Part shown: positions 1 through 60,572 of the stretch, one piece after another
Layout of the letters: each line of letters begins with the position of its first letter
Position numbering within the stretch: the first letter of the stretch is position 1
Source of the DNA: a bacterium
Lineage (GTDB): Bacteria; Patescibacteriota; Minisyncoccia; Phycocordibacterales; SBAW01
Direction: 5' to 3'
Assembly: GCA_037139975.1 (NCBI GenBank)
Contig: JBAXFJ010000003.1
Coordinates: forward strand, 1-62,604
Length of the DNA stretch: 62,604 bases
Translations under genes and position numbers: made by a program
Notes under the pieces: model-generated
The model's input: only the letters and a program-made list of their open reading frames with translations
Told to the model about the DNA's origin: nothing
Database searches by the model: none

Positions 1-54
1 CGCCTATGCCAGTGCCGCCGCCTATGCCAGTGCCGCCGCCTATGCCAGTGCCGC
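1..54. repeat. three perfect tandem copies of 18-bp unit cgcctatgccagtgccgc
   Basis: Direct reading. The array continues off the window edge and encodes GGTGIG hexapeptide repeats on the minus strand. Confidence 0.9.
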
Positions 55-913
55 CAGGACCCGATCCAGCAGCATTTACCGTCACACTAGCCGAACAGTG
101 GGCAGTGCCGCCGGGGCCGGTGAACGTCCCCTGAAAGACGGTGACGCGTGCAGAGGAAGGCAGGGTGTTGAGCGAGCCTGAAGGGGCGACATTGCCGATG
201 GAAGAGATGTTAGCCGCAGTAGCGTTCCTGCTTGTCCACCGAATGGTGACACTATCCCCCACAAAAATACTGCTTGGGGTCACCGACATATAGCACACAG
301 GAGCAGGGGGCGCTGTCGTGGCCGCGACCAGTACATACGTCGCCCCCGTAACAGGGAACGTGCCCGCCACAGCAGGGGCGCCCGCCACAGCGTTGAGCGC
401 AAATGAAAATGTATTGCCTTGCGCCGTGGTGGGTGCGCTTGCGACAATATTCCCCCACACCACAAACGTGTGCGCGTCCCCAGGAGCCAGGTGCAAAGGC
501 ACAGGAAAAGTCAAAGTGACGTCTTGTGTTGTGTTTAATATGGTTGCACCAGACACCTCGGCCGCAAGATAGTTGGCGGTGGTATCCACAAGGCCAACAT
601 TGCTGAATAAAGCGTTTGGAGCAGTGCCGCTTTTGTGGAGCGTGATGCTACTGACTGTTGCTGCGGTTGTGCTGTTGTTTTTGATTCCAAAAGCCACAAG
701 CGGAACATCGGTTCCAGGAGAAACACTTGCATCTTGCGGCTGCCCACTGGGCAAAACGAGCGCGAGCGAATTACTTGCGGTTGCTGACGCGCCGGACTGA
801 CTCGTTACAACAAGTGGTGTTTGTGCAACTGCCGGTTTTGAAAATACTCCCACAAACGACACAGAGAGGAGCGCAACAAAAAACACAGCGAGTACATGGT
901 GGTGCGACTTCAC
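1..913 (-). CDS. secreted repeat-containing protein, partial (3' end lies beyond window start); GTG start, absent from ORF track
   Basis: Manual minus-strand translation from GTG at 913 gives (M)KSHHHVLAVFFVALLSVSFVGVFSKPAVAQTPLVV... (signal-peptide-like), then T/A/S/V-rich sequence. There is no stop down to base 1, and it ends in GGTGIG x3. Confidence 0.6.
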   Translation of the reverse strand, partial: MKSHHHVLAVFFVALLSVSFVGVFSKPAVAQTPLVVTSQSGASATASNSLALVLPSGQPQDASVSPGTDVPLVAFGIKNNSTTAATVSSITLHKSGTAPNALFSNVGLVDTTANYLAAEVSGATILNTTQDVTLTFPVPLHLAPGDAHTFVVWGNIVASAPTTAQGNTFSFALNAVAGAPAVAGTFPVTGATYVLVAATTAPPAPVCYMSVTPSSIFVGDSVTIRWTSRNATAANISSIGNVAPSGSLNTLPSSARVTVFQGTFTGPGGTAHCSASVTVNAAGSGPGGTGIGGGTGIGGGTGIG

Positions 914-4751: not shown

Positions 4752-6104
4752 TTAGTATACCTCAGATCGATACCTCTTTACAACTTTCACAAGTGCTTCT
4801 GCAATATACAACGCGTCTTTTTTGGTCAGGTCGGGAAGCAGCGTTATCCGGATCGCTGTTTTTGACATTGCGCCTGAGACACCGAGTGCTTTGATGACGT
4901 GCGAGGGCTCGTCTGAGCCGATATTGCAGGCCGAACGGGTCGAGACCGCAACACCTTCGACATCGAGCGCAATAACGGCCATTTCAGCATCAAGGCCAGG
5001 AATCGAGATGTTAAGATTGTTTGCGACCCTCTTTTTCAGCTCTCGTTTTTCGTTCTGTTTTTCCTCTCTTGCGTGAAGTTTAGCTTCACGCAGATGCAAG
5101 TCGAGTACTGGGCCATTCACCAACACATCGGGAATTCTTTTTTTGATTTCAGTATAAAGAAAATCGCGCATCGCTGCTGTTTTTTCTGCACGAGCCTCCA
5201 CACCACTTGCGGCTTCGGCCATGGCAACACCAAACGAGCCTGCAAGCGGTGTGTTGGGCGTCCCCGCGCGCAGGTTGAATTCCTGCACACCACCACGCAA
5301 AACTGGTTCAATGTCGCTTCCCCTTCGCACATAAAGGCAACCGACACCCTTGGGACCCAACACTTTTTGTGCATCAAGCGTCATCAAGTCCACCCCGAGC
5401 TGGTCAACCCGCAGCGGCATCCACAACGGCGCCTGCGCTGCGTCAGTGTGGAAATATAGAGGCAAAACGGGAAGCGCAACCCCACCCTGGAGCGAGGGTT
5501 GGACTTGGCCTAGCGGCCCGGAGCGCCCGAGCGCAGGGGTGGGGTGGAGCTGATTAGCACGGCTCCGCTTTGCTTGACGAATTGCTTTGGCAATTTCATG
5601 CACCGGCTCGATGGTCCCCACTTCACTGTTGACCAACTGAATGGAGATGAACACGGTTTGCTCGTTGATCGCCTCTTTCAGCTGCTCGAGGGAAACAAAC
5701 CCCTGACTATCAACTGGAAGTTCGGTGACATAGAGGCCTTCGACCTCAAGTGCACGAAGCGGCTCAAGCACTGACTGATGCTCGATGGCGCAGGTGATGG
5801 CATGCAATTCGCCACGTTCTTGCAGCAGCGGCCGCAAGATGCCCTGGATGGCTAGGTTGTTTGATTCTGTCCCGCTGGCGGTAAAAATTATTTCGTCGCT
5901 GTGCGCACCAATCGCTTTTGCTATTTTTTCGCGCGCCTCGTCCATCGCTGCTTTTGCTTCGAGCGCTTCTTTGTGCAAGGCCCCTGCATTGCCATAGACA
6001 CCCAAAAGCTGCACCAGCTCTTTCGTGGCGTTCTTCGAGATCGGCGTCCCCGCCGCCGCATCTGCGTATATTCGCGTCTTTTGTATCAGCTTTCTAAGTG
6101 ACAT
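4752..6104 (-). CDS. cysteine desulfurase (class V aminotransferase, NifS/IscS-like) with two inserted segments
   Basis: Motifs FTASGTESNNLAI, HTDAAQA, a PLP-Lys region (DAQKVLGPKGVGCLYVR) and an STRSAC active-site Cys loop. ATG at 6104 is preferred over the GTG at 6158. Confidence 0.85.
   Translation of the reverse strand: MSLRKLIQKTRIYADAAAGTPISKNATKELVQLLGVYGNAGALHKEALEAKAAMDEAREKIAKAIGAHSDEIIFTASGTESNNLAIQGILRPLLQERGELHAITCAIEHQSVLEPLRALEVEGLYVTELPVDSQGFVSLEQLKEAINEQTVFISIQLVNSEVGTIEPVHEIAKAIRQAKRSRANQLHPTPALGRSGPLGQVQPSLQGGVALPVLPLYFHTDAAQAPLWMPLRVDQLGVDLMTLDAQKVLGPKGVGCLYVRRGSDIEPVLRGGVQEFNLRAGTPNTPLAGSFGVAMAEAASGVEARAEKTAAMRDFLYTEIKKRIPDVLVNGPVLDLHLREAKLHAREEKQNEKRELKKRVANNLNISIPGLDAEMAVIALDVEGVAVSTRSACNIGSDEPSHVIKALGVSGAMSKTAIRITLLPDLTKKDALYIAEALVKVVKRYRSEVY
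5068..5095. repeat. 28-bp hairpin repeat cttgcgtgaagtttagcttcacgcagat (copy 1 of 2)
   Basis: 27/28 identical to 19501-19528. Stem is gcgtgaag/cttcacgc. Confidence 0.85.
5479..5545 (-). repeat. 67-bp palindromic element with conserved 33-nt core (copy 1 of 2), in frame in the cysteine desulfurase gene
   Basis: Core 5494-5526 (minus strand) is 32/33 identical to 28021-28053. Flanking arms are accccaccctg/caggggtggggt. Confidence 0.85.
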
Positions 6105-6687: not shown

Positions 6688-8220
6688 ATGGAACAGAAAG
6701 AAACCTATCAGGGGCGTCCCCCTATCGTTGCAATTGTTGGCCACATCGACCATGGCAAGTCGACGCTGCTCGACTATATCCGCAAGACTCGGGTTACAGA
6801 AGGCGAAGCGGGCGGCATAACGCAACACCTCTCGGCATATCAGGCCACGCACGAAACCAAGAGTGGTTCACACTTGATCACCTTCTTGGACACACCAGGA
6901 CACGAAGCGTTTCGCGCGATGCGCTCGCGCGGTCTTGGTGTCGCCGACATCGCCATTTTGGTGGTTGCTGCCGACGACGGCGCCAAACCCCAGACCGTTG
7001 AAGCGATAAAACTCATCGAAGAAGCAAAGACCCCCTATATCGTCGCATTCACCAAAATCGACAAAGAAGGCGCCAACCTCGAACGCGCAAAGCTGTCGCT
7101 CATTGAGCATGGCGTTTTCCTTGAAGGCCAGGGCGGCACCATCTCGTTTGCCCCAGTCTCGAGCAAAACGGGCGAAGGCATTCCCGAGTTGCTCGACCTC
7201 ATCCTCCTTACCGCCGAACTCGAAGAGCTGACTGCCGACGCCGACGCTCCCGCCTCAGGTGTCGTCATCGAGGCCAACATTGACAACAAGCGTGGAAATA
7301 CCGCGACACTCATCGTCCTAAACGGCACCATCGAAAGCGGCGAATATGTTGTGTCGGGAGAGAGCTTTGCCCCGGTGCGCATCATGGAAAATTTCTTGGG
7401 CAAACCAATCAAAGAAGCGCTGCCAGGAAGCCCGGTGCGTATCGTGGGCTTCTCGTCCCTTCCTGCGGTGGGAGCAGCATGGCGCGTAGTTGAAAGCAAA
7501 AAAGAAGCAGAAAACTCTGTACGTGAAGCTAAACTTCCCACAACAAGCACATCTTCAACAGACGCAGACGACTTGGTCATCCTCCCCATCATCATCAAAA
7601 GTGACTTTTCGGGCACCGGCGACGCCGTGCTGCACGAGCTGCAAAAGCTCCCCATACACGAGCGTTTCGAGGCGCGCGTAGTGGCGCGCGGCGTGGGACC
7701 CATCACCGAAGGCGATGTGCGCCTGGCAGGCAGTGGCAAAAACCCAGGACTCATCGCGGGGTTCAACGTCAAACTTGACCGTGAACCACGCGAGTTGGCC
7801 GAGCGCCTGGGCGTCGAAGCAAAAACCTTTACCATCATCTATGAGCTCGCGCAGTGGCTTGGTGAAGAAATAGAAAAGCGCCGACCGCGCTCGGAAGCAG
7901 AAGAGGAACAGGCGGTGGCAAAAGTGCTCAAAATTTTCAGCAGCCAAGGCGCCAATGTTGTCTTAGGTGGCCGCGTTGAGAGCGGCGAGATGGTCCCAGG
8001 AAACGTCAAGTTTATGCGCCTTTCTCAATCCACACAGGCAGGTGCAGAAACAGAAAGTGAAATGATTGAGGTGGGTCGTGGCGAGTTGATAGGCCTTCAG
8101 TCCCAAAAAGAACAAGTCAAAAAAGTCCCCAAGGGTCAAGAGTTTGGCGCCATGGTCAAGACCAGCACACCGCCCCAGCCAGGAGACCAGATGATCGTCT
8201 TTGAGGCGGTGTTGAAATAG
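6688..8220 (+). CDS. infB: translation initiation factor IF-2 (short form)
   Basis: GTPase motifs [14 protein letters not shown] and TKID, followed by IF-2 C-terminal domains. Confidence 0.95.
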
Positions 8221-19500: not shown

Positions 19501-19528
19501 CTTGCGTGAAGTTTAACTTCACGCAGAT
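19501..19528. repeat. 28-bp hairpin repeat (copy 2 of 2)
   Basis: cttgcgtgaagtttaacttcacgcagat is 27/28 identical to 5068-5095. It lies about 50 nt downstream of the stop of the 19580-19885 gene. Confidence 0.85.
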
Positions 19529-22913: not shown

Positions 22914-23552
22914 CTAGGATTCCAGAACAACAATCTCACCCTCTTTGCCCTCTAAATCTTTCTTTTTTATTGTGAGCTTCTCTATTGGCTTTACCCCTTC
23001 CGCACTCGCTTCTTTCAAAAAAGCTTTAAGCGTTTGGTCGCTGCTATGCATAGGGATAATGACTTTTGGCTCGAGCTGAACCGCGAGTTTGTAGCCTTCA
23101 GCATATTCAAGTAAGCCGTTTTTACCGTCGCCGCCAATCGGCAAAAAGAGAATGTCGATGTCGTCGAGCTCCTGTTTTGCCTCTTGGGGCAGCGTACGCG
23201 TGCCGAGCGCACCCAAAAAGCACAGGTTCATTCCTTCGAGCATGATGCTATATACTGTGTTGATTGTTTCTTTTTCAGCCACTTGCCCATAGGTCGACAC
23301 GACCCCAAAGCCACGCACCGCAACATCACGGATTTCATATTCACCCGGCCCGTTAATGACGAACGGCTCGCGTTCGCCAAAGACGCCGTTTTCTGTGCCG
23401 TTAAAGTCGGGATGGTCTTGGCTGACAAAGACGATGTCTGAGCCAAACTTAACGCTCTTAAGGTCAGAGTCTTTTGCAGGCAAATTAAATGCCAAGGTGA
23501 GCTCGCCTTGGGTAATCTTAAAGCACTCCCCACCGAGGTAGTTGATAACCAT
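22914..23552 (-). CDS. metallo-beta-lactamase-fold hydrolase (UPF0173-like)
   Basis: 212 aa with INYLGGECFKI...VFVSQDHPDF...IPMH. Confidence 0.75.
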   Translation of the reverse strand: MVINYLGGECFKITQGELTLAFNLPAKDSDLKSVKFGSDIVFVSQDHPDFNGTENGVFGEREPFVINGPGEYEIRDVAVRGFGVVSTYGQVAEKETINTVYSIMLEGMNLCFLGALGTRTLPQEAKQELDDIDILFLPIGGDGKNGLLEYAEGYKLAVQLEPKVIIPMHSSDQTLKAFLKEASAEGVKPIEKLTIKKKDLEGKEGEIVVLES

Positions 23553-35472: not shown

Positions 35473-37377
35473 ATGCCAACAGAACCATCAAAAGGACCAC
35501 ATCGCCCGCACACTGCCCGCCCAAGCGGCACTGGCACAGGCCCACGACGTCCATTTAGTGGCGGCCAAGGCGGAAACAGAGGCAAACGCAGCGGCCCTGG
35601 CCGCGCCGGCAGCCCACGCCCCCACCAAGCGCACCCCGTGCGCGAGTTGCCCATCCCCGGCAGCCAGAGCGGCAATGGCGACGAGAAGCCAATCCCCCCT
35701 TTAGGTACAGGCAACATCCGCATCATCCCGCTCGGCGGCGTCGAAGAAATCGGCCGCAACATGACCTGCATCGAATACGGCAATGACATTGTCATCGTCG
35801 ACTGCGGCTTCCAATTCCGCGAGGACGATACCCCGGGCATCGACTACATCCTCCCCAATACGAAGTATCTCGAAGATCGCCAGGACAAAATTCGCGCGAT
35901 GTTCATCACCCACGGACACCTCGACCACATTGGTGGCATCCCCTATGTCATCGACCGCATCGGCTATCCGCCCATTTACACACGAAGGCTCTCGGCGGTG
36001 ATGATCAAAAAGCGCCAGGAAGAATTCCCCAATCTCAAAACACTCGAGATCCACGAGGTTGAAAAGGACGACGTCGTGCGTGTGGGCGACCTGCGCGTGC
36101 GCTTCTTCTCGGTCTCGCACACCATCCCCGATGCAATGGGCATCATCATCGAGACACCCTACGGCATGGTGGTCTTCACCGGTGACCTGCGCCTCGACCA
36201 CACCGACGGCATTCCTTCAGAACAAGAAGAAAAAGAGTTCGCTTATTTCAAAGACAAAAAAGTGCTCTTTTTGGCCGCTGACTCGACCAACGCAGACAAG
36301 CCGGGCTTCTCACTGCCCGAGCGAATCGTGCAAAAGAATCTCGATGCGATCATCACCAATACTAAAACACGCCTGATTGTTGGCACCTTCTCCTCACAGC
36401 TCGAGCGCATCATGCGTATGCTTGAGGCGGCAGAGCGATGCGGTCGCAAGGTGCTTGTTGAGGGCCGCTCGATGAAAGTAAATATCGAAATTGTGAAGCA
36501 CTTGGGCATGCTCAAGGTAGACGAAAAGATGTTTATCGACGCCGCCCAACTTGAACACCTGCCCGACCACAAAGTGATGGTCTTAGCCACCGGCGCCCAA
36601 GGCGACGAATTTGCCGCGTTGATGCGTGTGGCGATGAAGACCCACAAGTATGTGAAGATCAAGAAAGGCGACACGGTGGTGCTCTCGTCTTCGGTGGTAC
36701 CCGGCAACGAACGCGCCGTGCAAAAACTCAAAGACAACCTCAGTCGCCAAGGCGCCCAGATCATCGACCGCCAGATCATGGACGTGCACGCCTCGGGCCA
36801 CGCCAACCGCGACGAAACCTTCTGGATCCACTCAAAAATCAATCCAAAATTCTTTATGCCCTTGCACGGCTACCACTACATGCTCCGCGTGCATGCCGAC
36901 ATCGCCAAGGCCTGCGGACGCGGTGAAGACGACATCATCGTCCCCGACAACAGCTGTGTTATAGAGATTCAAGAAGAGGGCACCAAGATTGTCCGACTCA
37001 AAGAGATGGCACCTGCGGGCCTGCGCCTGGTGGACGGCTTCTCGATTGGCGATATCCAAGAAGTGGTCATCCGCGACCGCACGGTGCTCGCCCAAGAAGG
37101 CATGTTCGTCATCATCGCAACCGTGAATCCAAAAACCGGCCACCTTAGAAAATCTCCCGACATTATTTCGCGTGGCTTTGTCTATTTGCGCGAGAATCAA
37201 GACCTGCTTTCGCAGACACGCCTACTGATTAAGAAGACAATAGAGGACGGGACAAAGAACCAACAGCCAATCAACTTCGACTTTGTCAAAAATAACGTCA
37301 CCGACGCCGTCGCCCGCTTCCTCTTTGAGAAAACCAACAAACGCCCCATCGTCATCCCCGTGGTGCTGGGGGTTTGA
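35473..37377 (+). CDS. rnj: ribonuclease J with a Gly/Arg/Pro-rich N-terminal extension
   Basis: Metallo-beta-lactamase HGHLDHIGG plus beta-CASP and C-terminal domains. Confidence 0.9.
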   Translation: MPTEPSKGPHRPHTARPSGTGTGPRRPFSGGQGGNRGKRSGPGRAGSPRPHQAHPVRELPIPGSQSGNGDEKPIPPLGTGNIRIIPLGGVEEIGRNMTCIEYGNDIVIVDCGFQFREDDTPGIDYILPNTKYLEDRQDKIRAMFITHGHLDHIGGIPYVIDRIGYPPIYTRRLSAVMIKKRQEEFPNLKTLEIHEVEKDDVVRVGDLRVRFFSVSHTIPDAMGIIIETPYGMVVFTGDLRLDHTDGIPSEQEEKEFAYFKDKKVLFLAADSTNADKPGFSLPERIVQKNLDAIITNTKTRLIVGTFSSQLERIMRMLEAAERCGRKVLVEGRSMKVNIEIVKHLGMLKVDEKMFIDAAQLEHLPDHKVMVLATGAQGDEFAALMRVAMKTHKYVKIKKGDTVVLSSSVVPGNERAVQKLKDNLSRQGAQIIDRQIMDVHASGHANRDETFWIHSKINPKFFMPLHGYHYMLRVHADIAKACGRGEDDIIVPDNSCVIEIQEEGTKIVRLKEMAPAGLRLVDGFSIGDIQEVVIRDRTVLAQEGMFVIIATVNPKTGHLRKSPDIISRGFVYLRENQDLLSQTRLLIKKTIEDGTKNQQPINFDFVKNNVTDAVARFLFEKTNKRPIVIPVVLGV

Positions 37378-37433
37378 TATTTCTTGTAAGTTCGGGTAGT
37401 GTACCTTTACGCAACAAATAGGAGCTTGCGGCG

Positions 37434-37625
37434 ATGTACATCCTTGTTTATTCGATTGTGGTGCTGGGAACCTTTGGTGCCCCCGCTATTGCAACCGGGG
37501 CACACGAGTTCAATTCAAAGGCGGCCTGCGAATTTGCGGCTAATGATCTGAGAAAAGAGAATGGGGTTTCCAAAAAAGCCGGGGTAATGGCCATGTGTTA
37601 CCCAAAGGGCGAACGAGACAAATAA
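37434..37625 (+). CDS. hypothetical small secreted or membrane protein
   Basis: aggag lies 9 nt upstream. Hydrophobic N-terminus and two Cys. A terminator follows. Confidence 0.5.
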   Translation: MYILVYSIVVLGTFGAPAIATGAHEFNSKAACEFAANDLRKENGVSKKAGVMAMCYPKGERDK

Positions 37626-37632
37626 CTGAAAG

Positions 37633-37670
37633 AAAAAACGGCGCCCAAATTGGGACGCCATTTCTTTTTC
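37633..37670. terminator. bidirectional intrinsic terminator (copy A)
   Basis: aaaaaacggcgccc-aaatt-gggacgccatttctttttc. It is nearly duplicated at 38383-38420. Confidence 0.8.
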
Positions 37671-37687
37671 TATAGCGACATTTGAAA

Positions 37688-37707
37688 CACTACGATATAT
37701 CGTAGTG
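37688..37707. repeat. perfect 20-bp palindrome CACTACGATATATCGTAGTG (copy 1 of 3)
   Basis: Direct reading. It lies 15 nt downstream of the stop of the TrpR-like gene. Confidence 0.95.
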
Positions 37708-37722
37708 CCTAAAACATCTATT

Positions 37723-38124
37723 TTATATTCTGTCTACCCAGTTCCACCGCGGCGCATGGACTGGGCGTGGAGCACTTACCAAAGCCGCAAGGGCAGCGAG
37801 TAGCCCAGTACTCACTTTGTTCTTTTTTGCAATCCGAATCGTTTGATCAAATTTGCCTTTCTGCATCGCAGACCAAATACGCCCAACGGTAGATGGGCTC
37901 ACGCGGAGCGTTTCTTGAATATCGTCAAACGAAAACCCCTCACCGAGCATACAAATAATCGCAAGGCGTTTGGCCAGCATAATTTGCTCAGTGCGTGTAA
38001 AGAGTTCTGCACACACAAGTGAGCGGTCTTTTGCGCTGCCTCTGTTGGTGAGGTGATCCAAAAGCCGAACGTAGATCTCGTCAGCAATTTTCTTCTCTGG
38101 TTCGTGTCGTGACACATGTGGCAT
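37723..38124 (-). CDS. TrpR/YerC-YecD-like helix-turn-helix protein
   Basis: FTRTEQIMLAKRLAIICMLGEGFSFDDIQETLRVSPSTVGRIW matches the Trp-repressor-like YerC pattern. ATG at 38124. Confidence 0.7.
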   Translation of the reverse strand: MPHVSRHEPEKKIADEIYVRLLDHLTNRGSAKDRSLVCAELFTRTEQIMLAKRLAIICMLGEGFSFDDIQETLRVSPSTVGRIWSAMQKGKFDQTIRIAKKNKVSTGLLAALAALVSAPRPVHAPRWNWVDRI

Positions 38125-38126
38125 AG

Positions 38127-38146
38127 CACTACGATATATCGTAGTG
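38127..38146. promoter_or_regulatory. perfect 20-bp palindrome (copy 2 of 3); candidate operator and -10 element of the TrpR-like gene
   Basis: It begins 2 nt upstream of the ATG. The internal TATATC lies 8 nt upstream of the start codon. Confidence 0.5.
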
Positions 38147-38186
38147 GAAGTAACACAAAGTTTCTTATCCACAAATCCACTGCGTC

Positions 38187-38224
38187 AACGGCCCATCGTG
38201 ATCCCTGTGGTGCTGGGGGTGTAG
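38187..38224 (+). pseudogene. orphan duplicate of the RNase J 3' end (encodes QRPIVIPVVLGV-stop)
   Basis: Compared with 37341-37377 (KRPIVIPVVLGV-stop), all differences after the first codon are synonymous (cgc/cgg, gtc/gtg, ccc/cct, gtt/gtg, tga/tag). Confidence 0.6.
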
Positions 38225-38382
38225 AGGTGCTATAGTTCCGCTGTAAATCGGGTGGGAGATGCGCTGATGTTCTTTACTCGACGACCCCAAACGGAACCGC
38301 CCTCAGGGGTGATTCTCATTTGCGTAGTTATTTTAGGAGCTTGCCTTATTATATCTTCGTTCCTTTAATTAATCACGGATGC

Positions 38383-38420
38383 AAAAAACGGCGCCCCGGG
38401 AGGGACGCCATTTTCTTTTT
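38383..38420. terminator. bidirectional intrinsic terminator (copy B), downstream of rpoBC
   Basis: aaaaaacggcgcccc-ggga-gggacgccattttcttttt. Confidence 0.8.
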
Positions 38421-38442: not shown

Positions 38443-41400
38443 CTACCCTGCTATCTCTTTTTCTACTTCGACTGGTTCGGTCACCGCAGGGCCGTACTTA
38501 TTTATCATGCGTTCCTTGGGCGAGCCTTTGAAGCCGGTGCCTGCGGGGATGAGGCGGCCGATGATGACGTTCTCTTTGAGGCCCTCGAGGTGGTCAACCG
38601 ATCCATACATCGCGGCTTTGATGAGCATGCGCGTGGTGTTCTGGAACGACGCTGCCGAGAGGAACGATGCGCGCGAGAGGCTCACATCGAGGATACCCAT
38701 CACCAAGTGTTCATAGGTCGCAGGTGTCTCAAGCTCGCCGATACGGCCGTTAGCCAAGACAATATCGTTCTCGCTGCAGACGTCACCGGTCGAGAATTCG
38801 GTTGCGCCTGGGAGTGTGATCTTCACGCGGCTGAACATCTGGCGCACTATTGTTTCTAGGTGCTTGATAGAGATGCTTGCGCCTTGGAGTTCATAGATCT
38901 TCACGATCTCCGTGATGATGTACGCTTGGGTTGCTTCGCGGCCTGCATATTTGAAGAGGTCCGAAAGATCTGCCGAACCGTCGGTCAGCATCTGGCCTTT
39001 TTTGATTGTCTCCCCCACCTTCACCAAAGACTGGCGACGAGCGTTGACCGTGTATTCGATGATATCCTTTTTGCTCTTGCCGCGGTCTTCGAGACTTGGA
39101 GCAATGCGGATTATTTTTTCTTTGTCTTCTTGTTTAATTTCAACCACTTCGCCCGAGACGGTTGCAACAATTGCTGGGTTGCGTGGGCTGCGGCGCTCGA
39201 AGATTTCTTCAACGCGCGGCAAACCTTGGGTCACGTCGCCACCTGCTGAAGCTGCGCCACCGGCGTGCTTGACGTTCATCGTCAGCTGGGTGCCTGGCTC
39301 GCCGATTGCCTGTGCAGCAACGGTGCCCACCGCTTCACCGAGCGCGACTGGCTTCATGGTACCGAGGTCTGCGCCGTAGCAGTGCGCACAGATCCCACGG
39401 CTCGAGATGCAGCCAACAGGACTGCGCACATAGACTGACTCGCTGCCCAATTCTTCAATGTGCTTGGCGTCAACGCCGGTGATGAAGTGGCCTTTCTTGT
39501 AGACTACTTTGCCTTCAGCGTCTGCGACGTCTGCAGCCAAGTAGCGGCCTTCAATGTTTTTGGCCAAGAACGTGCCAATGCCTGAGGCGCTTTCGCGCGT
39601 CACGACAAGACCTTCTTTGGTGCCACACTCCTCTTCAACCACCACGATGTCTTGCGCGACATCAAAGAGACGTCTTGTGAGGTAGCCGGCCTTAGCGGTC
39701 GAGAGCGCTGTGGAAGCGAGGCCCGAACGTGAACCGTGTGTTGTGAGGAAGTACTCAATGGGCGAGAGGCCTTCTTTCATCGACTTGGTCACAGGGAGCT
39801 CAATGGTGTCACCCGATGGCGACGCGATGAGACCTTTCATACCGGCCATCTGGGTCACCTGTGCGACCGAACCGCGGGCGCCTGACTTGAGCATGTCTGA
39901 CACGGGGCCGTTGACGGGGAGTGTGCCCGGGATGTGCTTTTCAACTTCAGACTTGGCAGCGTGCCAGATCTCGATGTTCATGCGATAGCGCTCTTCTTCA
40001 GACAAGAGACCTTCTTGCCAATGTGCCACCACTTCTGCTGACTTCTTTTGTGCTGCGGCAACAATCGCGTCTTTCTCCTCAGGGATACGGATGTCGTCGA
40101 GCGACCAGGTGATGCCAGACTGCGTCACATAGCGGAAGCCAAAGTTCTTAATCTTGTCCATAATGTCGGGGATCTTCTCGAGACCGTAGCGTGCGATGAG
40201 ATCGTCGATGAGTTTGGCAAGCGACTTCTTGTCCATCGGTGCGTTGATGAACGGATAGTTGCTTGGAAAGACGGTGTTGAAGATGAGTCGGCCAACCGTG
40301 GTCTCAAAGAGCTGTCCACCGAACGCAGCGTATTTTTCTTTTTCACTTGGCATGACTTTGATCTTTGCTTGGAACGCCAAGTGTCCATAGTCGTATGCAA
40401 GGATGGCGCTGTTTGGGCTCGAGAAGGAAAGGCCTTCACCCTTAGCACTTTCGACTTCTTTGGTCATCCAATAGGTGCCCAGGAGAATATCGAGAAGCTT
40501 GCTTGCGATAACCACGTCGCCACTTCCTGGCTTGAGGATGTTCTTACTTGCAGACATAATCTCACGCGCTTCGGTCTGAGCTTCAGGCGAGAGCGGCACG
40601 TGCACGGCCATCTGGTCGCCGTCGAAGTCAGCGTTGAAGGCTGAACAGACGAGTGGGTGCAGCTGGATTGCATTGCCTTCGATGAGGATAGGTTGGAAGG
40701 CCTGGATGCCGAGGCGGTGCAGGGTTGGTGCGCGGTTAAGCAACACGTATTTGTCTTTGATGATGTCTTCGAGGATTGCCCACACTTCTGGCACGCCTTC
40801 GTCGATGAGGCGACCGGCACCACGGATGTTGAAGGCGAGTTCTTTCTCAAGCAATTTGCCGATAACAAATGGTCGGAAGAGTTCGAGCGCCATGTGTTTT
40901 GGAAGACCACACTGCGAGAGCTTGAGCTCTGGGCCCACCACAATCACCGAGCGACCCGAGTAGTCCACACGCTTGCCGAGCAGGTTCTGGCGGAAGAGGC
41001 CATGCTTGCCTTTCAGGTTGTCGGCGAGCGACTTCAACGGACGGGTGCGTGCTTGCGCACCTGCAGCAAACGCTGCGCCACCGTGACGGATGGAACTGTC
41101 GATGAGCATGTCGACTGCTTCCTGCAAGATGCGCTTCTCGTTGCGGAGGATGACGTCTGGTGCGTGGATTTCGATGAGTTTCTTGAGGCGATTGTTGCGG
41201 TTGATGACGCGGCGGTAGAGGTCGTTGGCGTCGGAGGTCGCATGGCGGCCACCGTCGAGTGCAACCATAGGGCGCAGGCCTGGTGGGATGACGGGAATGC
41301 GAGTCAAGAACATCCACTCGGGGCGCACGTTTGCGCGGATCATACCGCGGAGGATAGAGAGGCGCTTGCCAAACTTCTCGCGGTCAGCGGCGCCAGCTTT

Positions 41401-44400
41401 CACGAGCGCTGCTTCCACATCCTCGGTCATCTGCTTGAGATCGAGGTTTTTGCACAGATTGTGGATTGCTTCAGCACCGATACCTGCCTCGAACATCGCA
41501 CCATACTTGATGGTGTAGCGGTGATACTTTGGTTCATCGAGGACCGAGCCGACATAGATGTTGTCGATGTCTCGCTTTGCCTCGAGGAAGAGTTCTTTCA
41601 TCTTGTCTTTCGACTTTTCGTCTTGGAGATTTTTCAGTTTTGATTTGTATTCAGTCTCAAGCTCGCCAATGATGCGCTCTTTTTCAGCTTTGTGCACCTG
41701 GGTCACCATGAAGCCCGCAAAGTACACCACGCGCTCGAGTTCGCCCGAGGAGATGCCGAGGACCATCGCGAGGCGCGAAGGAATAGCGCGGAGGAACCAC
41801 ACGTGTGCCACGGGCACCGCGAGGTCGACGTGGCCCATGCGCTCGCGACGCACGATTGCGCGGGTGATTTCGACGCCACACTTCTCACAGACAATGCCTT
41901 TGTAACGGATACCGCGGTATTTGCCACAGTAACATTCGTAGTCACGCTCCGGTCCGAAGATCTTTTCGTCAAAGAGAGAGTTTTTCTCTGGACGCTGGGT
42001 GCGGTAGTTGATGGTTTCAGGTTTGGTGACTTCACCATGCGACCACTCGAGGATCTTTTCAGGAGACGCAGGACGGATGTGTACTGCGTCAAAGTCTGAA
42101 ATGTCTGCACCCGGCATCTTGCCCGCCTGTGAAAGGCGCGTGCTTGATACTATCTGTCCGCCGCGCATAAGCGCCACGTCCAAAGCGAGACCACGCAGCG
42201 TGTGGAGCAGCACGTTGAACGACGCAGGTGCGTAGTGGTGCGCGATGCGTTCCCCGCGAACAATAGAGTCAAAGGCAGCAGAGCGACCTTGGATGTCGTC
42301 AGACTTAATGGTGAGCATCTCACGAAGCGTGTATGCAGCACCATAACCAAGAAGCGCCCACACTTCCATTTCACCAAAGCGCTGGCCACCGCCTTGCGCT
42401 TTGCCACCGAGCGGTTGCTGGGTGATGAGCGAGTAGGGTCCGATTGAGCGCATGTGGATTTTATCTTCAACCATGTGGTGAAGTTTGAGGATGTACATGT
42501 AGCCGACCGCGATTTCTTGCTCAAATGCTTCGCCGGTGCGACCGTCATAGAGCTTCATCTTTCCAGACTCATTGAAGCCAGCCTTTTTGAGCTCACCACG
42601 AATTTCAGTTTCAGTTGCGCCAGCAAACGGTGGGCAGATTGCTTGATAGTTGAGTGTGTTTGCTGCGAGGCCGAGGTGCAATTCGAGGATCTGTCCCAGG
42701 TTCATACGTGACGGCACACCAAGCGGGGTCAAAATCACGTCAACCGGGCGACCGTCTTCCATGTACGGCATGTCTTCTTCGGGCAAGATGCGTGAGATAA
42801 CACCCTTGTTGCCGTGACGGCCTGCGAGCTTGTCGCCAACCGACACCGTGCGGAGCTGTGCCACTTCGATGTGCACGCGCTTGATGATGCCACTTTCGAG
42901 ATGGTGGCCTTGTTCACGAGAAAATACTTTAACGCCGATGACGCGACCACGCTTGCCGTTCTCCATGCGGAGTGACGAGTCTTTTACATCGCGTGCCTTG
43001 TCGCCGAAGATAGAACGCAAAAGGCGCTCTTCAGGAGTAAGCTGCGTCTCGCCTTTTGGAGTAATTTTACCAACAAGAATGTCGCCGGGGCGCACCTCAG
43101 AGCCTTGACGGATGATGCCGTCTTCGTCGAGGTTACGGAGTTTGCCTTCAGAAACGTTGGGGATGTCGTGGGTAGTCTCTTCTTCGCCGAGCTTGGTGTC
43201 ACGCACGTTGCAGACAAACTCTTCGATGTGAATCGAGGAGAATTTTGAGTCTTTGACCATGCGCTCTGAGATGATGATGGCGTCTTCGTAGTTTGCTCCC
43301 GACCAGCACATGAAAGCCACGAGGGCGTTCTGCCCAAGCGCGAGCTGGCCGTTGTCGGTCGACGACGCGTCAGCCAAAAGCTGACCTTTTTCAACTTTTT
43401 GACCAACCGAGACTGATGGGCGTTGGTGCAGTGTGGTAAAACCGTTGGTGCGCACAAAGTTGACGAGCGGATAGATGGTGTCTTTGCCTTTTGCATTTTT
43501 GACGACGACACGCTTGCCGTCAGCCTCAGTCACCACGCCTTCTTCAAGCGCGAGCGCGATGCGTCCAGTGTCTTTTGCGGCGCGCGCCTCCATGCCGGTG
43601 CCCACGAGTGGCGCCTCGGGAAGAATGCAGGGCGTACCCTGCTTCTGCATGTTTGAACCCATGAGCGCACGGTTTGCATCGTTGTGTTCAAGGAATGGGA
43701 TCATCGAAGTGGCAACCGAGAATGGTTGCTCAGCCGCAACGTCGATAAACGTCACTTCCTCGCGAGCGATGCGTGTTGGCACCCCGTTGAGACGCGCCTC
43801 CACCATGGCGTCTGCGATTTTTTCTCCTTCGAGCTTGGTTGCACCGTGAACAATATATTCTTTTTCTTCTTCAGCAGCATTGAGGTATTGGATTTTACCG
43901 GTGACCACGCCTTTCTCGACACGCACGTACGGCGTCTCGATCATGCCGAACTCGTTGACACGCGCAAAGGTCGAGAGACGCAAAATAAGACCAATGTTAG
44001 GGCCTTCAGGAGTCTGGATCGGGCAAAGGCGCCCATAGTGGCTGGGGTGCACGTCGCGCACTTCAAAGCCTGCGCGCTCACGAGTGAGGCCGCCGGGTCC
44101 AAGCGCCGAGAGTGTGCGGAGGTGTTCGAGCTCTTCGAGCGCATTGGTCTGTTGCATGAACTGCGACAGCTGGTTGGTGGTGAAAAATTCTTTGATGCGT
44201 GCTTGCAGCGGACGCGGGTTGACGAATTGCTGCGGCATCGACGCGTCGGTGTCGATGGTCGACATGCGGTCTTGGATATTGCGCTTCATGTGTGTGAGGC
44301 CAACACGGAGGCGCTGCTGGAGCATTTCGCCCACATAGCGCACGCGGCGGGAACCAAGGTGGTCGATGTTGTCTTCAACGGCATTCGGGTCATTCTCGAG

Positions 44401-45303
44401 GCTCAGAACCGTCTCAAGCACGGTCACCAAGTCGTCGATGTTGAGTGTCTTGCGGGCCAGACCTGCTTCGTCCATCTCTTTATCAAAACGCTGGTTAAAG
44501 CGAAAACGCCCAACACGCGAGAGGTCGTAGCGGTCTTCACCAAAAATAGAGTTGATGTATTCGCGGGCGTTCGCGGCGGTTGCCATGTCGCCGTCGCGAA
44601 GGCGCTTGTGGATCTCGACATATGAGTCTTCAACTGTTTTTGCAGGGTCATTTTCAATTGCGTTCGCGATCCACGCTGAGCCGCGCTCAGAGTTTGCAAA
44701 CAATGCCTTCATGTCAGCATCCGAAGACACACCAAACACGCGCAACAGCGACGTCACGGGGAACTTGCGCTTTCGGTCGATGCGCACCGACAAGTCGCCA
44801 TCGGCACCTGCCTCTATTTCGATCCACGCACCGCGCGAAGGAATGATCTTTGCACCAAAGTGACGCTTGTTCTTTACTTCCTCAGTCGTGAAAAAGACGC
44901 CGTATGAACGCGCAAGCTGGGGCACAATGACACGTTCCACACCACTGATGATGAAGGTGCCGTGTGGGGTCATCAGGGGGAAGTCAGCCAAGAAGATCTC
45001 CTGCTCCTTCTCGCCACCCATCGCTTTGTTTTTGAGGAGCACGGTCGCATGCAGAGGCACGTCGAGCGTGAGCTTGTGGGCCTTGGCATAGTGCTCGTCG
45101 AACTTTGGCTCACCGATGTGAACCTTTACAAACTCAAGGTCAAACTTTTTGCCCGAGTAGTCTTTGATGGGGGTGAACTCTTTAAAAATGTCACGAACAC
45201 CGCTTTCAAGCAGTGTTTTGTATGAATCGGCTTGCGCAGCGACGAGGTTGGGGGTCTCGACACGAGGGGCTCGGAACCGTGAGAAGGTTTTTTGTTCGCG
45301 CAT
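38443..45303 (-). CDS. rpoBC: fused DNA-directed RNA polymerase beta-beta' (RpoB-RpoC) single ORF
   Basis: 2286 codons. The first 1062 aa or so are RpoB-like. From M at 42117 onward the sequence is RpoC-like (..[32 protein letters not shown].., NADFDGD). No stop separates them. Confidence 0.9.
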
Positions 45304-45423
45304 AGTTTTTAAGGCTAGTTAATAAAACTATTTGGGTAATAAAACGCACATGCCCAATTGCTCACCCATTCACTCGTTCTTACGGAAAGAATTTCTGCAA
45401 GAGAGTTATCCACACCCACTAGA

Positions 45424-56795: not shown

Positions 56796-57386
56796 TCACA
56801 AAAACGTCTTTCTGTGTAGTTCACACAATCCACAACGCTCGATTGCTTCGTAATGTTTCTTGGTGCCGTAGCCTTTGTGGATTTCAAACCCATAGTCGGG
56901 GAACTTTTTTGCAAGGTTGCACATCAGCCGGTCACGCTCGACCTTTGCCGCAATAGACGCAAGCGAAATGACCGACTCGGTCACATCGCCTTTAATGATC
57001 GTTTGTTGTGTGTATTCGGGCGGCGCAATCAATAAGCCATCGAGCAATACCATGACTTCTTCTGGATTTGGGACGATTTTTTTAACACCTCGCGACACGC
57101 ACTGTCTAACAGCTTTAGTAATCCCCACTCTATCTATCACCTTTGCTGAAGCGAACACTACGATATATCGTAGTGAGTTTTTTGCAGACGCATCCTGATT
57201 TTTCACTTTATTTTGCAAAAGCTTGTATATCTCTTCCCGCTTTTTGGGCGAAAGCTTCTTAGAGTCCGCGACGCCGGGAAAATACTTTTTGATGTCAAAA
57301 CCCATAGGCACCAAAACGACCCCCACGGCCACCGGTCCCGCCAAAGGCCCCCGGCCCGCCTCATCGACACCAATTAAAAATTTCAC
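56796..57386 (-). CDS. rnhB: ribonuclease HII
   Basis: GVDEAGRGPLAGPV. GTG start. Confidence 0.95.
   Translation of the reverse strand: MKFLIGVDEAGRGPLAGPVAVGVVLVPMGFDIKKYFPGVADSKKLSPKKREEIYKLLQNKVKNQDASAKNSLRYIVVFASAKVIDRVGITKAVRQCVSRGVKKIVPNPEEVMVLLDGLLIAPPEYTQQTIIKGDVTESVISLASIAAKVERDRLMCNLAKKFPDYGFEIHKGYGTKKHYEAIERCGLCELHRKTFL
57156..57175. repeat. perfect 20-bp palindrome CACTACGATATATCGTAGTG (copy 3 of 3), inside rnhB
   Basis: Direct reading. It is translated as ..SLRYIVVF.. in rnhB. Confidence 0.95.
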
Positions 57387-57410
57387 GCTCTTCTATTGTA
57401 TACTGCAAAC

Positions 57411-60400
57411 ATGTCAGCATCTTTTGCCCCGCTCCACAACCATTCACACTATTCACTCTTGGGGGCGCTGCCCAAACTGCCAGCGCTGGTGGCTGCGGCA
57501 AAAAAAGAAGGTTGCACTGCGTTGGCGCTCACCGACCTGGGCAATATGTATGGCACGGTCGAGTTTGTGCAGGAATGCCAGCATGAAGGCGTCAAACCAA
57601 TTATCGGTCTTGAAGCGTACCTTCAAGACGGCGCGCGACTGGTGCTGCTGGCCGAAAACGAGAGTGGGTATAAAAATTTGCTCAAGCTGGTGACCGTCTC
57701 ATACACAGCCGAACACGAAGGCCGACCCATCTGCACACCCGAGATGCTTGCCGCGCACGCGGGAGGCATCATCGCCATCGTGCCCTATCTGCGTGGTGAA
57801 GTGCAAAAGGCACTGCGTGGGCAAGAAAGCGCACAAAACAGAGAGCGTGCCGAAAAACTGCTTACTCAGTATCAAAAACTATTTGGCGCAGAGAACGTCT
57901 ATCTGGAAATCTCGCACTATGCGGGCAATGCCGAGCACGAAGCGTTGTTTGAGCGTCTGCAGGCGTTTGTACAGGAACACCACGCGTCGCTCGTCGCAGG
58001 ACAAGAGGTGTACTACCTGGGCGGCGACGACCGCCTCGCGTGGGAGACGATGCGTAAAATCGAAAACGGCTATGCTGCTGAGGACGACTTGACCGAAGAC
58101 TATGCTTTTCCCAAAGAAAAAGAGATGCAGCAAAAGTTCAAGAAGCTACCCGAAGCACTTGCAAACAGCCTCAAAATTGCTGAACGCTGCACCGTCGAGC
58201 TGGTCTTGGGCAAATTTGTCTTTCCTGCCTTTCCACTACCACCAAACAAAACAGCAGACGAACTGCTCCACGACCTGTGCATGGAGGGTGCTCGCGCTCG
58301 CGGTGTCGCTGAAGACGCCCTTGTGTTGGAGCGGCTCGAATATGAGCTGGGCATCATCAAGTTTAAGGGTTATGCGATGTACTTTTTGGTGGTTGAAGAC
58401 CTCATCCGCTTTGCGCGCGAACACGACATCTACTACAACATTCGCGGTTCGGTGGCGGGCTCGATGACCACCTACCTTTTGCAAATTACCAAAATTGATC
58501 CACTTGAATACAAAATCCCCTTTGAGCGCTTCCTCAACCCTGAGCGCCCCTCGGCGCCCGACATCGACATGGACTTCGCCGATGACCGCCGCGACGAAGT
58601 GATCCGCTATGCGCGCGCAAAGTACGGTGAGACCCGGGTCGCACAAATTGGAACGTTTGGGACCATGCTCGCGCGCGGCGTAGTGCGGGACGTGGCGCGC
58701 GCGCTCGGCTACCCCTACGGCCTCGGCGACCGCGTCGCTAAGGAAATCCCCTTTGGCTCGCAAGGCTTTGCGATGACGCTCGACCGCGCGCTGACCGAAA
58801 ACCCCGAGCTCGGCAAACTCTACAAAGCCGACCAAGAGGTGAAAGAAGTCATCGACTTGGGCAAAAAGATCGAGGGCTGTGCACGGCACATCTCGGTGCA
58901 CGCGGCGGGCGTGGTCATCTCCCCCAAACCCCTTGTTGACTATGCCCCGCTCCAACACGACCCCAAGGGCGGCAAGCTCATCACCCAATACGACATGTAT
59001 TCAGTCGGCGAAGACGGTATCGGCCTCACCAAGTTTGACTTCCTCGGGATCCGCAACCTCACTATTCTTGCTGAGGCAGTGCGGCTGATAGAAAAGCTGC
59101 GCGGCGTCAAAGTCGACATTGAGGCAATCACCATGGACGATGCCAAAACATTTAAAATGCTCGCAGAGGGCAAAACCGAAGGCGTCTTCCAGATGGGCGG
59201 GGCCGGCATGACTAAGTGGCTCGTCGAACTGGGGCCCACCACCATCCACGACATCAACGCTATGGTCGCGCTCTATCGCCCAGGTCCCATGCAATTTATC
59301 CCCGACTACATCAAACGCAAACACAACCCGGAGTTGGTCACCTATCTCGACCCGGTTATGGAACCAATTTTGAAACAAACCTATGGCGTGCTGGTCTATC
59401 AAGACGACCTGCTCATCATGGCCAACCAACTCGCAGGCTATTCGTGGGGCGAGGTCGACAAATTTCGCAAAGCAGTGGGCAAAAAAATTCCTGAAGAAAT
59501 GGCCGCTCAGAAAGAAAAATTTATCCAAGGCTGCGTCACGCATGTGGGGTGGAAGCTTGCCAAAGCTCAAGAAGTGTGGGCGTGGATCGAGCCGTTTGCT
59601 GCCTATGGTTTCAACAAAGCACATTCGGCGAGCTATGGCCGCGTCGCCTACCAGACTGCATACATGAAGGCCAATTTCCCCGTCGAATACATGACGGCGG
59701 TCCTGACCGCAGAGTCGGGCAACATGGATACCATCACCACGATGATCGCCGAGTGCAAACGCATGCACATCCCCGTCTTGCCACCTGACGTGAACGAGAG
59801 TTTTGGAGACTTTACCGTCATTGACGATAGTATTCGCTTTGGCCTCTATTCAATCAAAAATTTTGGCGCGGGTGTTTCTGACTCGATCATCGCTGAACGA
59901 AAAAAGAACGGGCGGTTTAGTTCACTGAGCGATTTTCTCTCTCGTATTACTGACTCAAACCTCAACAAAAAAGGCCTTGAATCGCTCATCGAATGTGGCG
60001 CACTCGACTCACTCTATCAATCAACAAGCGGGCAAGAGTATACTGATGGCGGCCGCGGGCAGATGCTGGCTGCAATCGAGACCCTGCTGCAGTACCACCG
60101 CGACGTAGTAAAAGAAAGCTCCCACGACTCGCTCTTTGGGGCACTGGGTGGCACCACCAGCGAGCTGAAGCTCCCTCCCGCCCCCGAGGTGCCCATGGAA
60201 ACGCGCCTTGCATGGGAAAAAGAATTGCTTGGACTCTATGTTTCGGGGCACCCTCTGGACCGGTTCAAAGAAAAGCTCGACAAGCGCACGATGACCATTG
60301 GCCAAATGCGAACGCAGGTGATGCCTGGCGCCACGACGGTTGCGGCGGGCATGGTCGAGGACGTCCGCGTAATCCTCACCAAAGGCGGCGACCAAATGGC

Positions 60401-60572
60401 GTTCATTAAAATTGCCGACTATGACGGCTCCATCGAAGCCGTGATCTTCCCCAAAAGCTTTGCAGAATATAAAAGCATCATTCAACCCGACATGTGCATC
60501 GCGCTCAAGGGCAAGCTCAGCAACCGCAACGGCGAACTCTCGCTGGTTGCAGACGCGCTCAAGGCGCTTTAA
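57411..60572 (+). CDS. dnaE: DNA polymerase III alpha subunit
   Basis: PHP domain LHNHSHYSLL, then polymerase core and OB fold. ATG at 57411. Confidence 0.95.
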   Translation: MSASFAPLHNHSHYSLLGALPKLPALVAAAKKEGCTALALTDLGNMYGTVEFVQECQHEGVKPIIGLEAYLQDGARLVLLAENESGYKNLLKLVTVSYTAEHEGRPICTPEMLAAHAGGIIAIVPYLRGEVQKALRGQESAQNRERAEKLLTQYQKLFGAENVYLEISHYAGNAEHEALFERLQAFVQEHHASLVAGQEVYYLGGDDRLAWETMRKIENGYAAEDDLTEDYAFPKEKEMQQKFKKLPEALANSLKIAERCTVELVLGKFVFPAFPLPPNKTADELLHDLCMEGARARGVAEDALVLERLEYELGIIKFKGYAMYFLVVEDLIRFAREHDIYYNIRGSVAGSMTTYLLQITKIDPLEYKIPFERFLNPERPSAPDIDMDFADDRRDEVIRYARAKYGETRVAQIGTFGTMLARGVVRDVARALGYPYGLGDRVAKEIPFGSQGFAMTLDRALTENPELGKLYKADQEVKEVIDLGKKIEGCARHISVHAAGVVISPKPLVDYAPLQHDPKGGKLITQYDMYSVGEDGIGLTKFDFLGIRNLTILAEAVRLIEKLRGVKVDIEAITMDDAKTFKMLAEGKTEGVFQMGGAGMTKWLVELGPTTIHDINAMVALYRPGPMQFIPDYIKRKHNPELVTYLDPVMEPILKQTYGVLVYQDDLLIMANQLAGYSWGEVDKFRKAVGKKIPEEMAAQKEKFIQGCVTHVGWKLAKAQEVWAWIEPFAAYGFNKAHSASYGRVAYQTAYMKANFPVEYMTAVLTAESGNMDTITTMIAECKRMHIPVLPPDVNESFGDFTVIDDSIRFGLYSIKNFGAGVSDSIIAERKKNGRFSSLSDFLSRITDSNLNKKGLESLIECGALDSLYQSTSGQEYTDGGRGQMLAAIETLLQYHRDVVKESSHDSLFGALGGTTSELKLPPAPEVPMETRLAWEKELLGLYVSGHPLDRFKEKLDKRTMTIGQMRTQVMPGATTVAAGMVEDVRVILTKGGDQMAFIKIADYDGSIEAVIFPKSFAEYKSIIQPDMCIALKGKLSNRNGELSLVADALKAL

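Follow-up and report, generated by a model that had tools for sequence, protein, structure and literature searches.

The locus and its palindromes

The window, by which we mean the whole stretch of 62,604 nucleotides that was analysed, contains a short gene on the minus strand at 37723-38124 (ATG at 38124-38122, stop codon at 37725-37723, 133 codons), which lies between two copies of the same perfect 20-bp palindrome, CACTACGATATATCGTAGTG. The palindrome-gene-palindrome unit occupies 37688-38146 (459 bp), and a further copy of the palindrome is found some 19 kb away. The features to which we refer below are the following.

37633 to 37670, no strand: canonical bidirectional intrinsic terminator found by the terminator scan, beyond O2, serving RNase J/orf63 on the plus strand and the regulator on the minus strand
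37688 to 37707, no strand: O2, predicted downstream operator; identical palindrome that starts 15 nt past the stop codon and lies in the spacer towards the convergent RNase J operon
37723 to 38124, minus strand: regulator of predicted TrpR fold (Pfam, profile, AF2/Foldseek), 133 aa, N-terminus MPHVS, HTH ..LRVSPSTVGR..
38127 to 38146, no strand: O1, predicted upstream operator; perfect 20-bp palindrome ending 2 nt 5' of the regulator ATG
38131 to 38136, minus strand: TATCGT (TAnnnT) in O1, candidate -10 hexamer, 6 nt from the ATG
38187 to 38224, plus strand: RNase J relic recognised by translation, the last ~12 codons (..RPIVIPVVLGV) and the stop codon, 40 nt beyond O1
38371 to 38420, no strand: second copy of the terminator hairpin, terminating rpoBC, 76% identical to 37621-37669
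56796 to 57386, minus strand: rnhB (RNase HII), host of O3; Pfam RNase_HII E=3e-37; divergent from dnaE (57396-60572)
57156 to 57175, no strand: O3, predicted third operator in rnhB; encodes LRYIVV with rare codons

The window holds exactly three copies of CACTACGATATATCGTAGTG (37688-37707, 38127-38146 and 57156-57175), while 0.00 were expected in 100 shuffles. A preliminary description of this DNA had argued that three exact 20-mers were beyond chance, and had given the distances of 2 nt from the ATG and 15 nt from the stop codon, the 133 codons and the 459-bp unit; all of this agrees with the sequence. It had also proposed a search for near matches. Run on the window, this search returned the three exact copies and no copy with 1-6 mismatches; the next best match had 7 mismatches, as in shuffled sequence. 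Two points had escaped the preliminary description, namely that the third copy is intragenic, in the RNase HII gene, and that flanking on both sides is a property of the whole family.

Across both flanking palindromes, zero differences were seen in a 40.6-kb contig of 72x depth or in the contigs of other lake-water runs. Since the sequence is identical in independent assemblies, the palindromes must be real DNA and not an assembly artefact. In low-coverage runs the contigs end at the palindromes.

The regulator protein

The window protein scored 26.3 bits against the Pfam family PF01371 (Trp_repressor; cut-off 27, E=7.8e-6), and a precomputed PF01371 match is present in most homologues. When a profile built from 23 homologues was compared with the PDB, it matched the TrpR-like proteins 3frw (E 2.4e-6) and 3kor (E 8.4e-6). 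An AF2 model of the monomer had a pLDDT of 83.7, and the top 22 Foldseek matches in the PDB were all TrpR or TrpR-like chains, including E. coli TrpR, 3kor, 3frw and 3g1c, with TM values of 0.55-0.80 (normalised to target length), probabilities of 0.9-1.0 and E-values of only 0.09-0.8. These results support the original assignment as a TrpR-type HTH regulator, and according to the model the protein has the TrpR fold, a helical bundle with an HTH formed by helices D and E. The term "YerC-like", which had been used as well, does not hold in the sense of orthology: the score against NCBIfam TIGR02531 (yecD_yerC) was 17.1 bits, far below the cut-off of 42.2. We rejected identity with a YerC/HisR orthologue on the same grounds, and also because the palindrome shares only its outer CAC/GTG with the HisR operator and no his genes were seen.

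In the ~130-145 aa of a family member the N-terminus MPHVS is invariant and is followed by a TrpR-like core, with ~35 extra residues at the C-terminus. The metagenome collection contained more than 560 relatives. Where homologues carried lineage names these were exclusively Patescibacteria, and as far as we have seen the family appears to be confined to CPR/Patescibacteria. Proteins of the TrpR superfamily bind dyad-symmetric operators of roughly 18-20 bp, and form an intertwined dimer that works with a small-molecule co-repressor. The positions that align to Thr44, Arg54, Thr81 and Arg84 of TrpR are conserved in the regulator family, which is only a hint that these proteins, too, might be dimers of the TrpR type with a co-repressor. 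Profile searches with Pfam and NCBIfam found no HUH/Y1 or other catalytic domain in the regulator, and neither Pfam nor Foldseek indicated any likeness to ParB. Our literature searches on YerC/TrpR, on CPR regulators and on the core sequence found no description of the regulator family or of the palindrome. The regulator and its predicted operator are a real pair of a known kind (TrpR family), which is, as far as the searches show, undescribed.

Palindromes on both sides of the gene are a family trait

We collected 71 distinct metagenome homologues with flanks, oriented them on the gene, and scored palindromes of at least 16 bp with at most one mismatch within 80 nt of the start or the stop. 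An upstream palindrome was present in 62/70 homologues and a downstream one in 55/69. Both were present in 50/68, compared to 2/253 control ORFs of the same loci, so the comparison with other CPR genomes proposed in the preliminary description came out in favour of an association between palindrome and gene. In 47 of these 50 loci the upstream and downstream copies share the inner 16-mer. The family-wide core of the palindrome is TAYGATATATCRTA, and the outer arms vary by lineage.

The exact 20-mer of the window was found in 30 stretches, among them Saccharibacteria, Paceibacteria and Moran-, Kaiser-, Adler-, Zambryski- and Nomurabacteria, and in seven of the 30 it adjoins a homologue of the regulator. 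It also occurs in one Erysipelotrichaceae MAG (L026) and one Bdellovibrionales MAG (L017), which is compatible with chance (we estimate ~0.5 matches to be expected in 596 Gb) or with contamination. Away from the gene the sites are rare: five palindromes in 222 kb of flanks and one in 61 kb of window, i.e. ~1 site per 45-60 kb. One MAG (JBBTUF01) has two regulator paralogues (L011/L099 and L012), whose flanking palindromes differ, being of the ACTTCGATATATCGAAGT type and the exact 20-mer, respectively; the exact 20-mer is also found 82 nt upstream of the L011/L099 paralogue.

Co-variation between the protein and its site

In the predicted recognition helix, residue 78 occupies the second position; it aligns with Ala80 of TrpR. 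In 36 cases Ser at this position goes with CGAT..ATCG in the palindrome (CGATATATCG), Gln goes with TGAT..ATCA (TGATATATCA) in 15/15, and Thr, Val or Ala goes with CA(G/A)TATACTG (CAGTATACTG) in about 11/12. A neighbour-joining tree places Gln78 at no fewer than three separate positions and Thr78 at five or more. A similar relation is seen for residue 3 in the N-terminal arm, where His is associated with a TATA centre; Gln occurs at this position in three loci only, which belong to two independent lineages and have TGCA or TTCA centres. The repeated co-switching of residues 78 and 3 with bases of the site points to direct readout by a dimeric HTH protein. The preliminary description had proposed that the palindrome is the dyad-symmetric site of the regulator. 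This prediction is well supported by the family-wide flanking, by the residue-base co-variation and by the published 20-bp operators of TrpR and HisR (PMC9413887), and from these sequence comparisons we predict with high confidence that the palindrome is the cognate operator of the gene that it flanks.

Upstream copy and promoter geometry

Genes of the window have almost no Shine-Dalgarno sequences, and in about ten of them a TAnnnT box precedes the start codon by 6-9 nt (e.g. TATACT-6-ATG at dnaE and TAGAAT-6-ATG at 22914-23552). This pattern suggests that leaderless mRNAs are widespread in the window. In the preliminary description the hexamer TATATC, 8 nt from the regulator ATG, was taken for the -10 element. 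Its position is correct, but TATCGT, 6 nt from the ATG, is the better candidate. Because the position of TATCGT fits the leaderless -10 boxes of the other genes, autorepression is plausible in the window, and O1 could plausibly be promoter and operator at once, with the bound protein occluding the promoter. The palindrome centre is similarly close to the ATG (12-17 nt) in ~20 homologues; for about two thirds of the homologues the distance is 20-63 nt, so a strict overlap with a leaderless -10 box is not universal. A scan for the sigma-70 consensus gave no -35/-10 pair at O1. No RNA run contained the regulator locus; metatranscriptomes of the same study had short fragments over rpoB/C (40.6-41.2 kb) only, and zero at this locus.

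Downstream copy

The role of O2 is less obvious. A canonical bidirectional terminator lies ~20 nt beyond it, so O2 is not the terminator of the regulator gene, and the terminator scan did not call O1 or O2 as intrinsic terminators. In most clades O2 faces a convergent gene, and with such a neighbour there is no downstream gene for which it could be the promoter.

Across the family the distances between the centres of O1 and O2 range from 429 to 532 bp, and show a periodicity of 10.5-10.7 bp. The phasing was R 0.39-0.42 with p ~0.015 when the loci were dereplicated at 50-60% identity, and p was 0.03 at 80%. Among periods of 5-30 bp only 1-2% score as well as 10.5-10.7 bp. We regard this as a modest hint that O1 and O2 might cooperate via a DNA loop. 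As an alternative to the loop, O2 may block read-through from neighbouring genes.

Third copy and other intragenic sites

O3 lies 211 nt inside rnhB. The RNase HII strand motif hRYxVxFASA is common to the clade and has the form LRYIVV in 17/120 sequences. Six of the LRYIVV rnhB genes were readable at the DNA level, and five of them use the same codons, CTA CGA TAT ATC GTA GTx, at a protein identity of 62-75%. In the window 2% of Leu codons are CTA, 8% of Arg codons are CGA and 9% of Val codons are GTA, and with this usage the probability of the O3 codon string is 1.8e-5. That so improbable a string is kept in five of six genes argues for selection of O3 at the DNA level. O3 is followed by a T-run, and the two together have a terminator-like score on the plus strand, antisense to rnhB.

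Intragenic palindromes were seen elsewhere in trmD (L002, L118) and in a reverse transcriptase gene (L010, L021). Those in trmD (L002 5960-6010, L118 11882-11901) are in frame and of a second type (..CCATATATGG..), and may be the site of a paralogous regulator; in L002 the second-type palindrome adjoins an exact 20-mer and is located in a variable linker of the protein. In L010 (4077-4096) and L021 (1505-1524) the exact 20-mer is in frame (TLRYIVVF) after the YADD motif of the reverse transcriptase, which by its sequence looks like the type found in diversity-generating retroelements.

Gene neighbourhood

In close relatives (L025, L029-L032, L113-L116; 60-84% identity) one side of the locus has the order secG, SBP, RNase J and then the convergent regulator. 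Other clades have other, equally stable contexts: glyA > gene > argS > ileS; thrS > gene < gyrB; tkt <> gene < rpe; smc > gene < rnr. In the window a 63-aa ORF (37434-37625, plus strand) separates RNase J from the terminator; it is not shared by all relatives, and matches weakly a PHROG whose function is unknown (E=0.0015).

The other side of the locus bears traces of a rearrangement. Positions 38187-38220 (34 nt) repeat 37340-37373 with 91% identity, i.e. the 3' end of the RNase J gene is duplicated beside O1. They belong to a partial duplication (37340-37670 vs 38187-38420) that straddles the regulator unit and whose second copy is without the region of the 63-aa ORF. The relic and the second hairpin are located between O1 and rpoBC, where relatives have a gene for an HhH-GPD glycosylase. 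Judged from these alignments, the relic marks a rearrangement breakpoint directly beside O1. Duplicated terminator hairpins also bracket the unit in L113 and L097, and together with the breakpoint they indicate that the unit was evidently relocated as a whole on rare occasions. In the rpoBC gene itself (38443-45303, minus strand) rpoB and rpoC are fused into one ORF of 2286 aa, with the RpoC zinc-finger region in frame after the RpoB C-terminus.

The preliminary description had considered a mobile regulator cassette, and this suggestion did not stand up. No transposase or recombinase was found: the IS630 model covers only the HTH of the regulator and scores 16 bits against a cut-off of 100. 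No direct repeats that could represent a target-site duplication abut the window palindromes, the regulator gene is single-copy in the window, and gene order is kept in relatives. Phage or defence origin was rejected separately, as the regulator had zero PHROG matches and only a weak, HTH-level PADLOC match, and the single viral contig with the 18-mer is, by our own reckoning, about what chance would produce.

We also looked for signs of a replication origin. Two perfect DnaA boxes (TTATCCACA) occur in the window and both are isolated, one (38165-38173) 20 nt from O1 and the other (45406-45414) upstream of rpoBC. In five homologous loci (L054, L068, L076, L084, L108) there is a DnaA box 47-54 nt upstream of the start. 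In all, 6/71 homologues have a box nearby compared to ~2.7 expected, a weak enrichment, and there is no GC-skew switch in the window; we therefore dropped this explanation.

Discussion

The reading that we consider likely is that the palindrome is the operator of a dimeric TrpR-fold repressor encoded between its copies, O1 serving autorepression and O2 and O3 being further operators. From the co-variation we infer that the two HTHs would read a half-site each, that residue 78 would face the bases at positions 3-5 from the centre, and that the N-terminal arm MPHVS would read the A/T-rich centre. Since O1 appears to overlap a leaderless -10 box, binding of the protein would silence the gene that encodes it. 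O2 would be a second operator, which most likely cooperates with O1 via a loop of ~440 bp or else stops convergent polymerases, a part of the scheme that is weakly supported. O3 would be a further conserved target and would form either a roadblock or a remote auxiliary site close to where rnhB and dnaE start divergently. The analogy with TrpR and HisR makes a small-molecule co-repressor likely.

It is instructive to compare this arrangement with known systems. TrpR and HisR (B. subtilis YerC) have 20-bp palindromic operators, the HisR consensus is cacTTTAnnnnnnTAAAgtg, and HisR sites are found also upstream of hisR itself (PMC9413887). The window regulator resembles both proteins in its predicted fold, in the 20-bp dyad and in the site upstream of its own gene, and the window palindrome shares the outer CAC...GTG with cacTTTAnnnnnnTAAAgtg (PMC9413887). 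It differs from YerC/YecD by a score far under the family cut-off and by the half-site TAYGATA|TATCRTA. In contrast to HisR and TrpR, its family has the invariant N-terminal arm MPHVS and the ~35 additional C-terminal residues, a second operator just past the stop codon family-wide, and conserved intragenic sites. Nor are there his or trp genes near the regulator; HisR operators stand upstream of genes for histidine biosynthesis or uptake, and no his genes were found in the Pfam-annotated loci (L111-L120) or recognised among recurrent neighbours elsewhere.

Loop-forming repressors use an auxiliary operator hundreds of bp from the main one, as in lac (O1-O2 401 bp), gal and deo. The present locus is similar to these in having two identical dyads ~430-530 bp apart, one of them at the candidate promoter, with a weak helical periodicity, but here the auxiliary site brackets the regulator's own gene. 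With RAYT/REP systems it has in common a single-copy, vertically inherited gene between short palindromes that its product is predicted to recognise; the differences are the HTH repressor fold without HUH/Y1 and the number of sites, ~10-20 per genome and not hundreds. Like parS, the palindrome is conserved across phyla, occurs in few copies and is tolerated within coding sequences, whereas the protein belongs to a family unrelated to ParB and no origin-proximal clustering was seen in the window.

Some observations do not fit the operator model easily. O2 usually faces a convergent gene, where there is nothing for a classical operator to control, and there are sites within coding sequences (rnhB, trmD, reverse transcriptase). 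Three identical sites without degenerate copies are unusual for a regulon. Moreover, among 95 unique 20-bp palindromic sites 55% extend by three or more further pairs (null 8%) and 27% by five or more (null 1.2%). Each site has an extension sequence of its own, and the total length often comes to 26-46 bp. A dimer footprint does not account for this extended palindromy. Either DNA or RNA structure matters, or, as we infer, templated mutation makes palindromes grow.

The extended palindromy is one argument for regarding the palindromes as structure elements, i.e. hairpins or cruciforms formed in RNA or in single-stranded or supercoiled DNA, which would act in processing, stability or termination or in a REP-like manner, with the gene as a RAYT-like partner. 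The arms vary between sites and yet stay complementary. L107 and L080 have arrays of 3-8 copies near the gene; in L107 (3830-5040) at least eight copies of (A)ACATTACGATATATCGTAATGTT follow one another at intervals of 66-105 nt around the regulator gene and downstream of it, and two of the L107 copies have a 19-nt stem-loop (CCGAC..GTCGG) at the exact centre. Many sites are in convergent spacers or are flanked by A-runs or T-runs, and O3 with its T-run is terminator-like on the plus strand. However, the co-variation of residues 78 and 3 with the site is what recognition of double-stranded DNA by a TrpR-type dimer would predict, the copy number away from the gene is low (~1 per 45-60 kb), the protein lacks HUH/Y1 and any other recognised catalytic domain, and in the window O2 is already followed by a canonical terminator. 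No Rfam family matches at the palindromes; at the gathering threshold the window gave five tRNAs only. The extension itself may be a mutational by-product of quasi-palindrome correction or snap-back duplication. We therefore think a purely structural role improbable. Somewhat more improbable still is that these are chromosome-organising or centromere-like sites in the manner of ParB/parS, MatP/matS or Noc/NBS, with no part in the control of transcription. Such sites would explain why there are few near-perfect palindromes per genome, some conserved within coding sequences, why many CPR classes retain the exact 20-mer, why the sites flank the protein's own gene, as parS often does, and perhaps why the gene adjoins smc, gyrB or dnaE in some clades. 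But the protein folds like members of a family of ligand-controlled repressors, in many loci the upstream site is at promoter distance from the start codon, and no clustering beyond the gene flanks was seen; in the window, the skew and the two isolated DnaA boxes do not indicate an origin.

A mobile cassette, in which the palindromes would be the terminal inverted repeats of a moving 459-bp element, could account for the different neighbourhoods of the unit in different clades and for the breakpoint with the RNase J relic and the duplicated terminator beside O1 (with hairpins also in L113 and L097). Against it stand the absence of a transposase or recombinase (IS630 16 bits vs 100, HTH only) and of a target-site duplication, the single copy in the window, a gene order that is the same in relatives of 60-84% identity and stable within each clade, and the lack of notable PHROG or defence matches beyond one viral contig with the 18-mer. 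We judge it very unlikely. The explanation to which we give practically no weight is that the copies are a product of chance, coding constraint or assembly. It is true that LRYIVV is a natural variant of the RNase HII motif hRYxVxFASA, and that low-coverage contigs break at the palindromes. Nevertheless, shuffled sequence yields zero copies, the 1.8e-5 codon string is present in five of six genomes, and independent assemblies are identical across both palindromes. A DNA uptake sequence, a restriction site and a sequencing linker were rejected because of the low copy number, the in-frame conservation and the agreement of the assemblies.

To return to the repressor model, a more far-reaching form of it can be imagined, although we regard it as rather unlikely. 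In this form a TrpR-like ligand sensor common to the CPR would form a loop of its own gene, or insulate it, between cruciform-prone operators, and would couple a host-derived metabolite to growth via a few deeply conserved sites in or next to genes of replication and translation (rnhB/dnaE, trmD, aminoacyl-tRNA synthetases, gyrB and smc). The extended palindromy would then be functional DNA structure and more than mutational drift.

CPR/Patescibacteria represent a large share of bacterial diversity and have very small genomes with few regulators, and for very few of their transcription factors is a binding site known. Here the family, its operator, the likely specificity residues (78 and 3) and one or more conserved targets (rnhB) could be read from sequence alone, and the pair offers experiments in Saccharibacteria, which are now tractable and open to genetic manipulation (PMC10633639). 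The family-wide position of the gene between two copies of its own predicted operator, with some indication of helical phasing, makes for an unusual autoregulatory arrangement, which could act as a compact, self-insulating regulatory module. In the intragenic sites with their rare codons, selection on the DNA clearly overrides codon choice.

Two other repeats were seen in the window. A second repeated palindrome, TGCGTGAAGTTTAGCTTCACGCA, is present in three copies that are 91-96% identical (5068-5095, 19501-19528 and 7522-7543), and may be the site of another regulator. At the very beginning of the window (1-55), in a coding region, there is a tandem array of three identical 18-nt units (CGCCTATGCCAGTGCCGCC), the 19-nt copies overlapping by one base.
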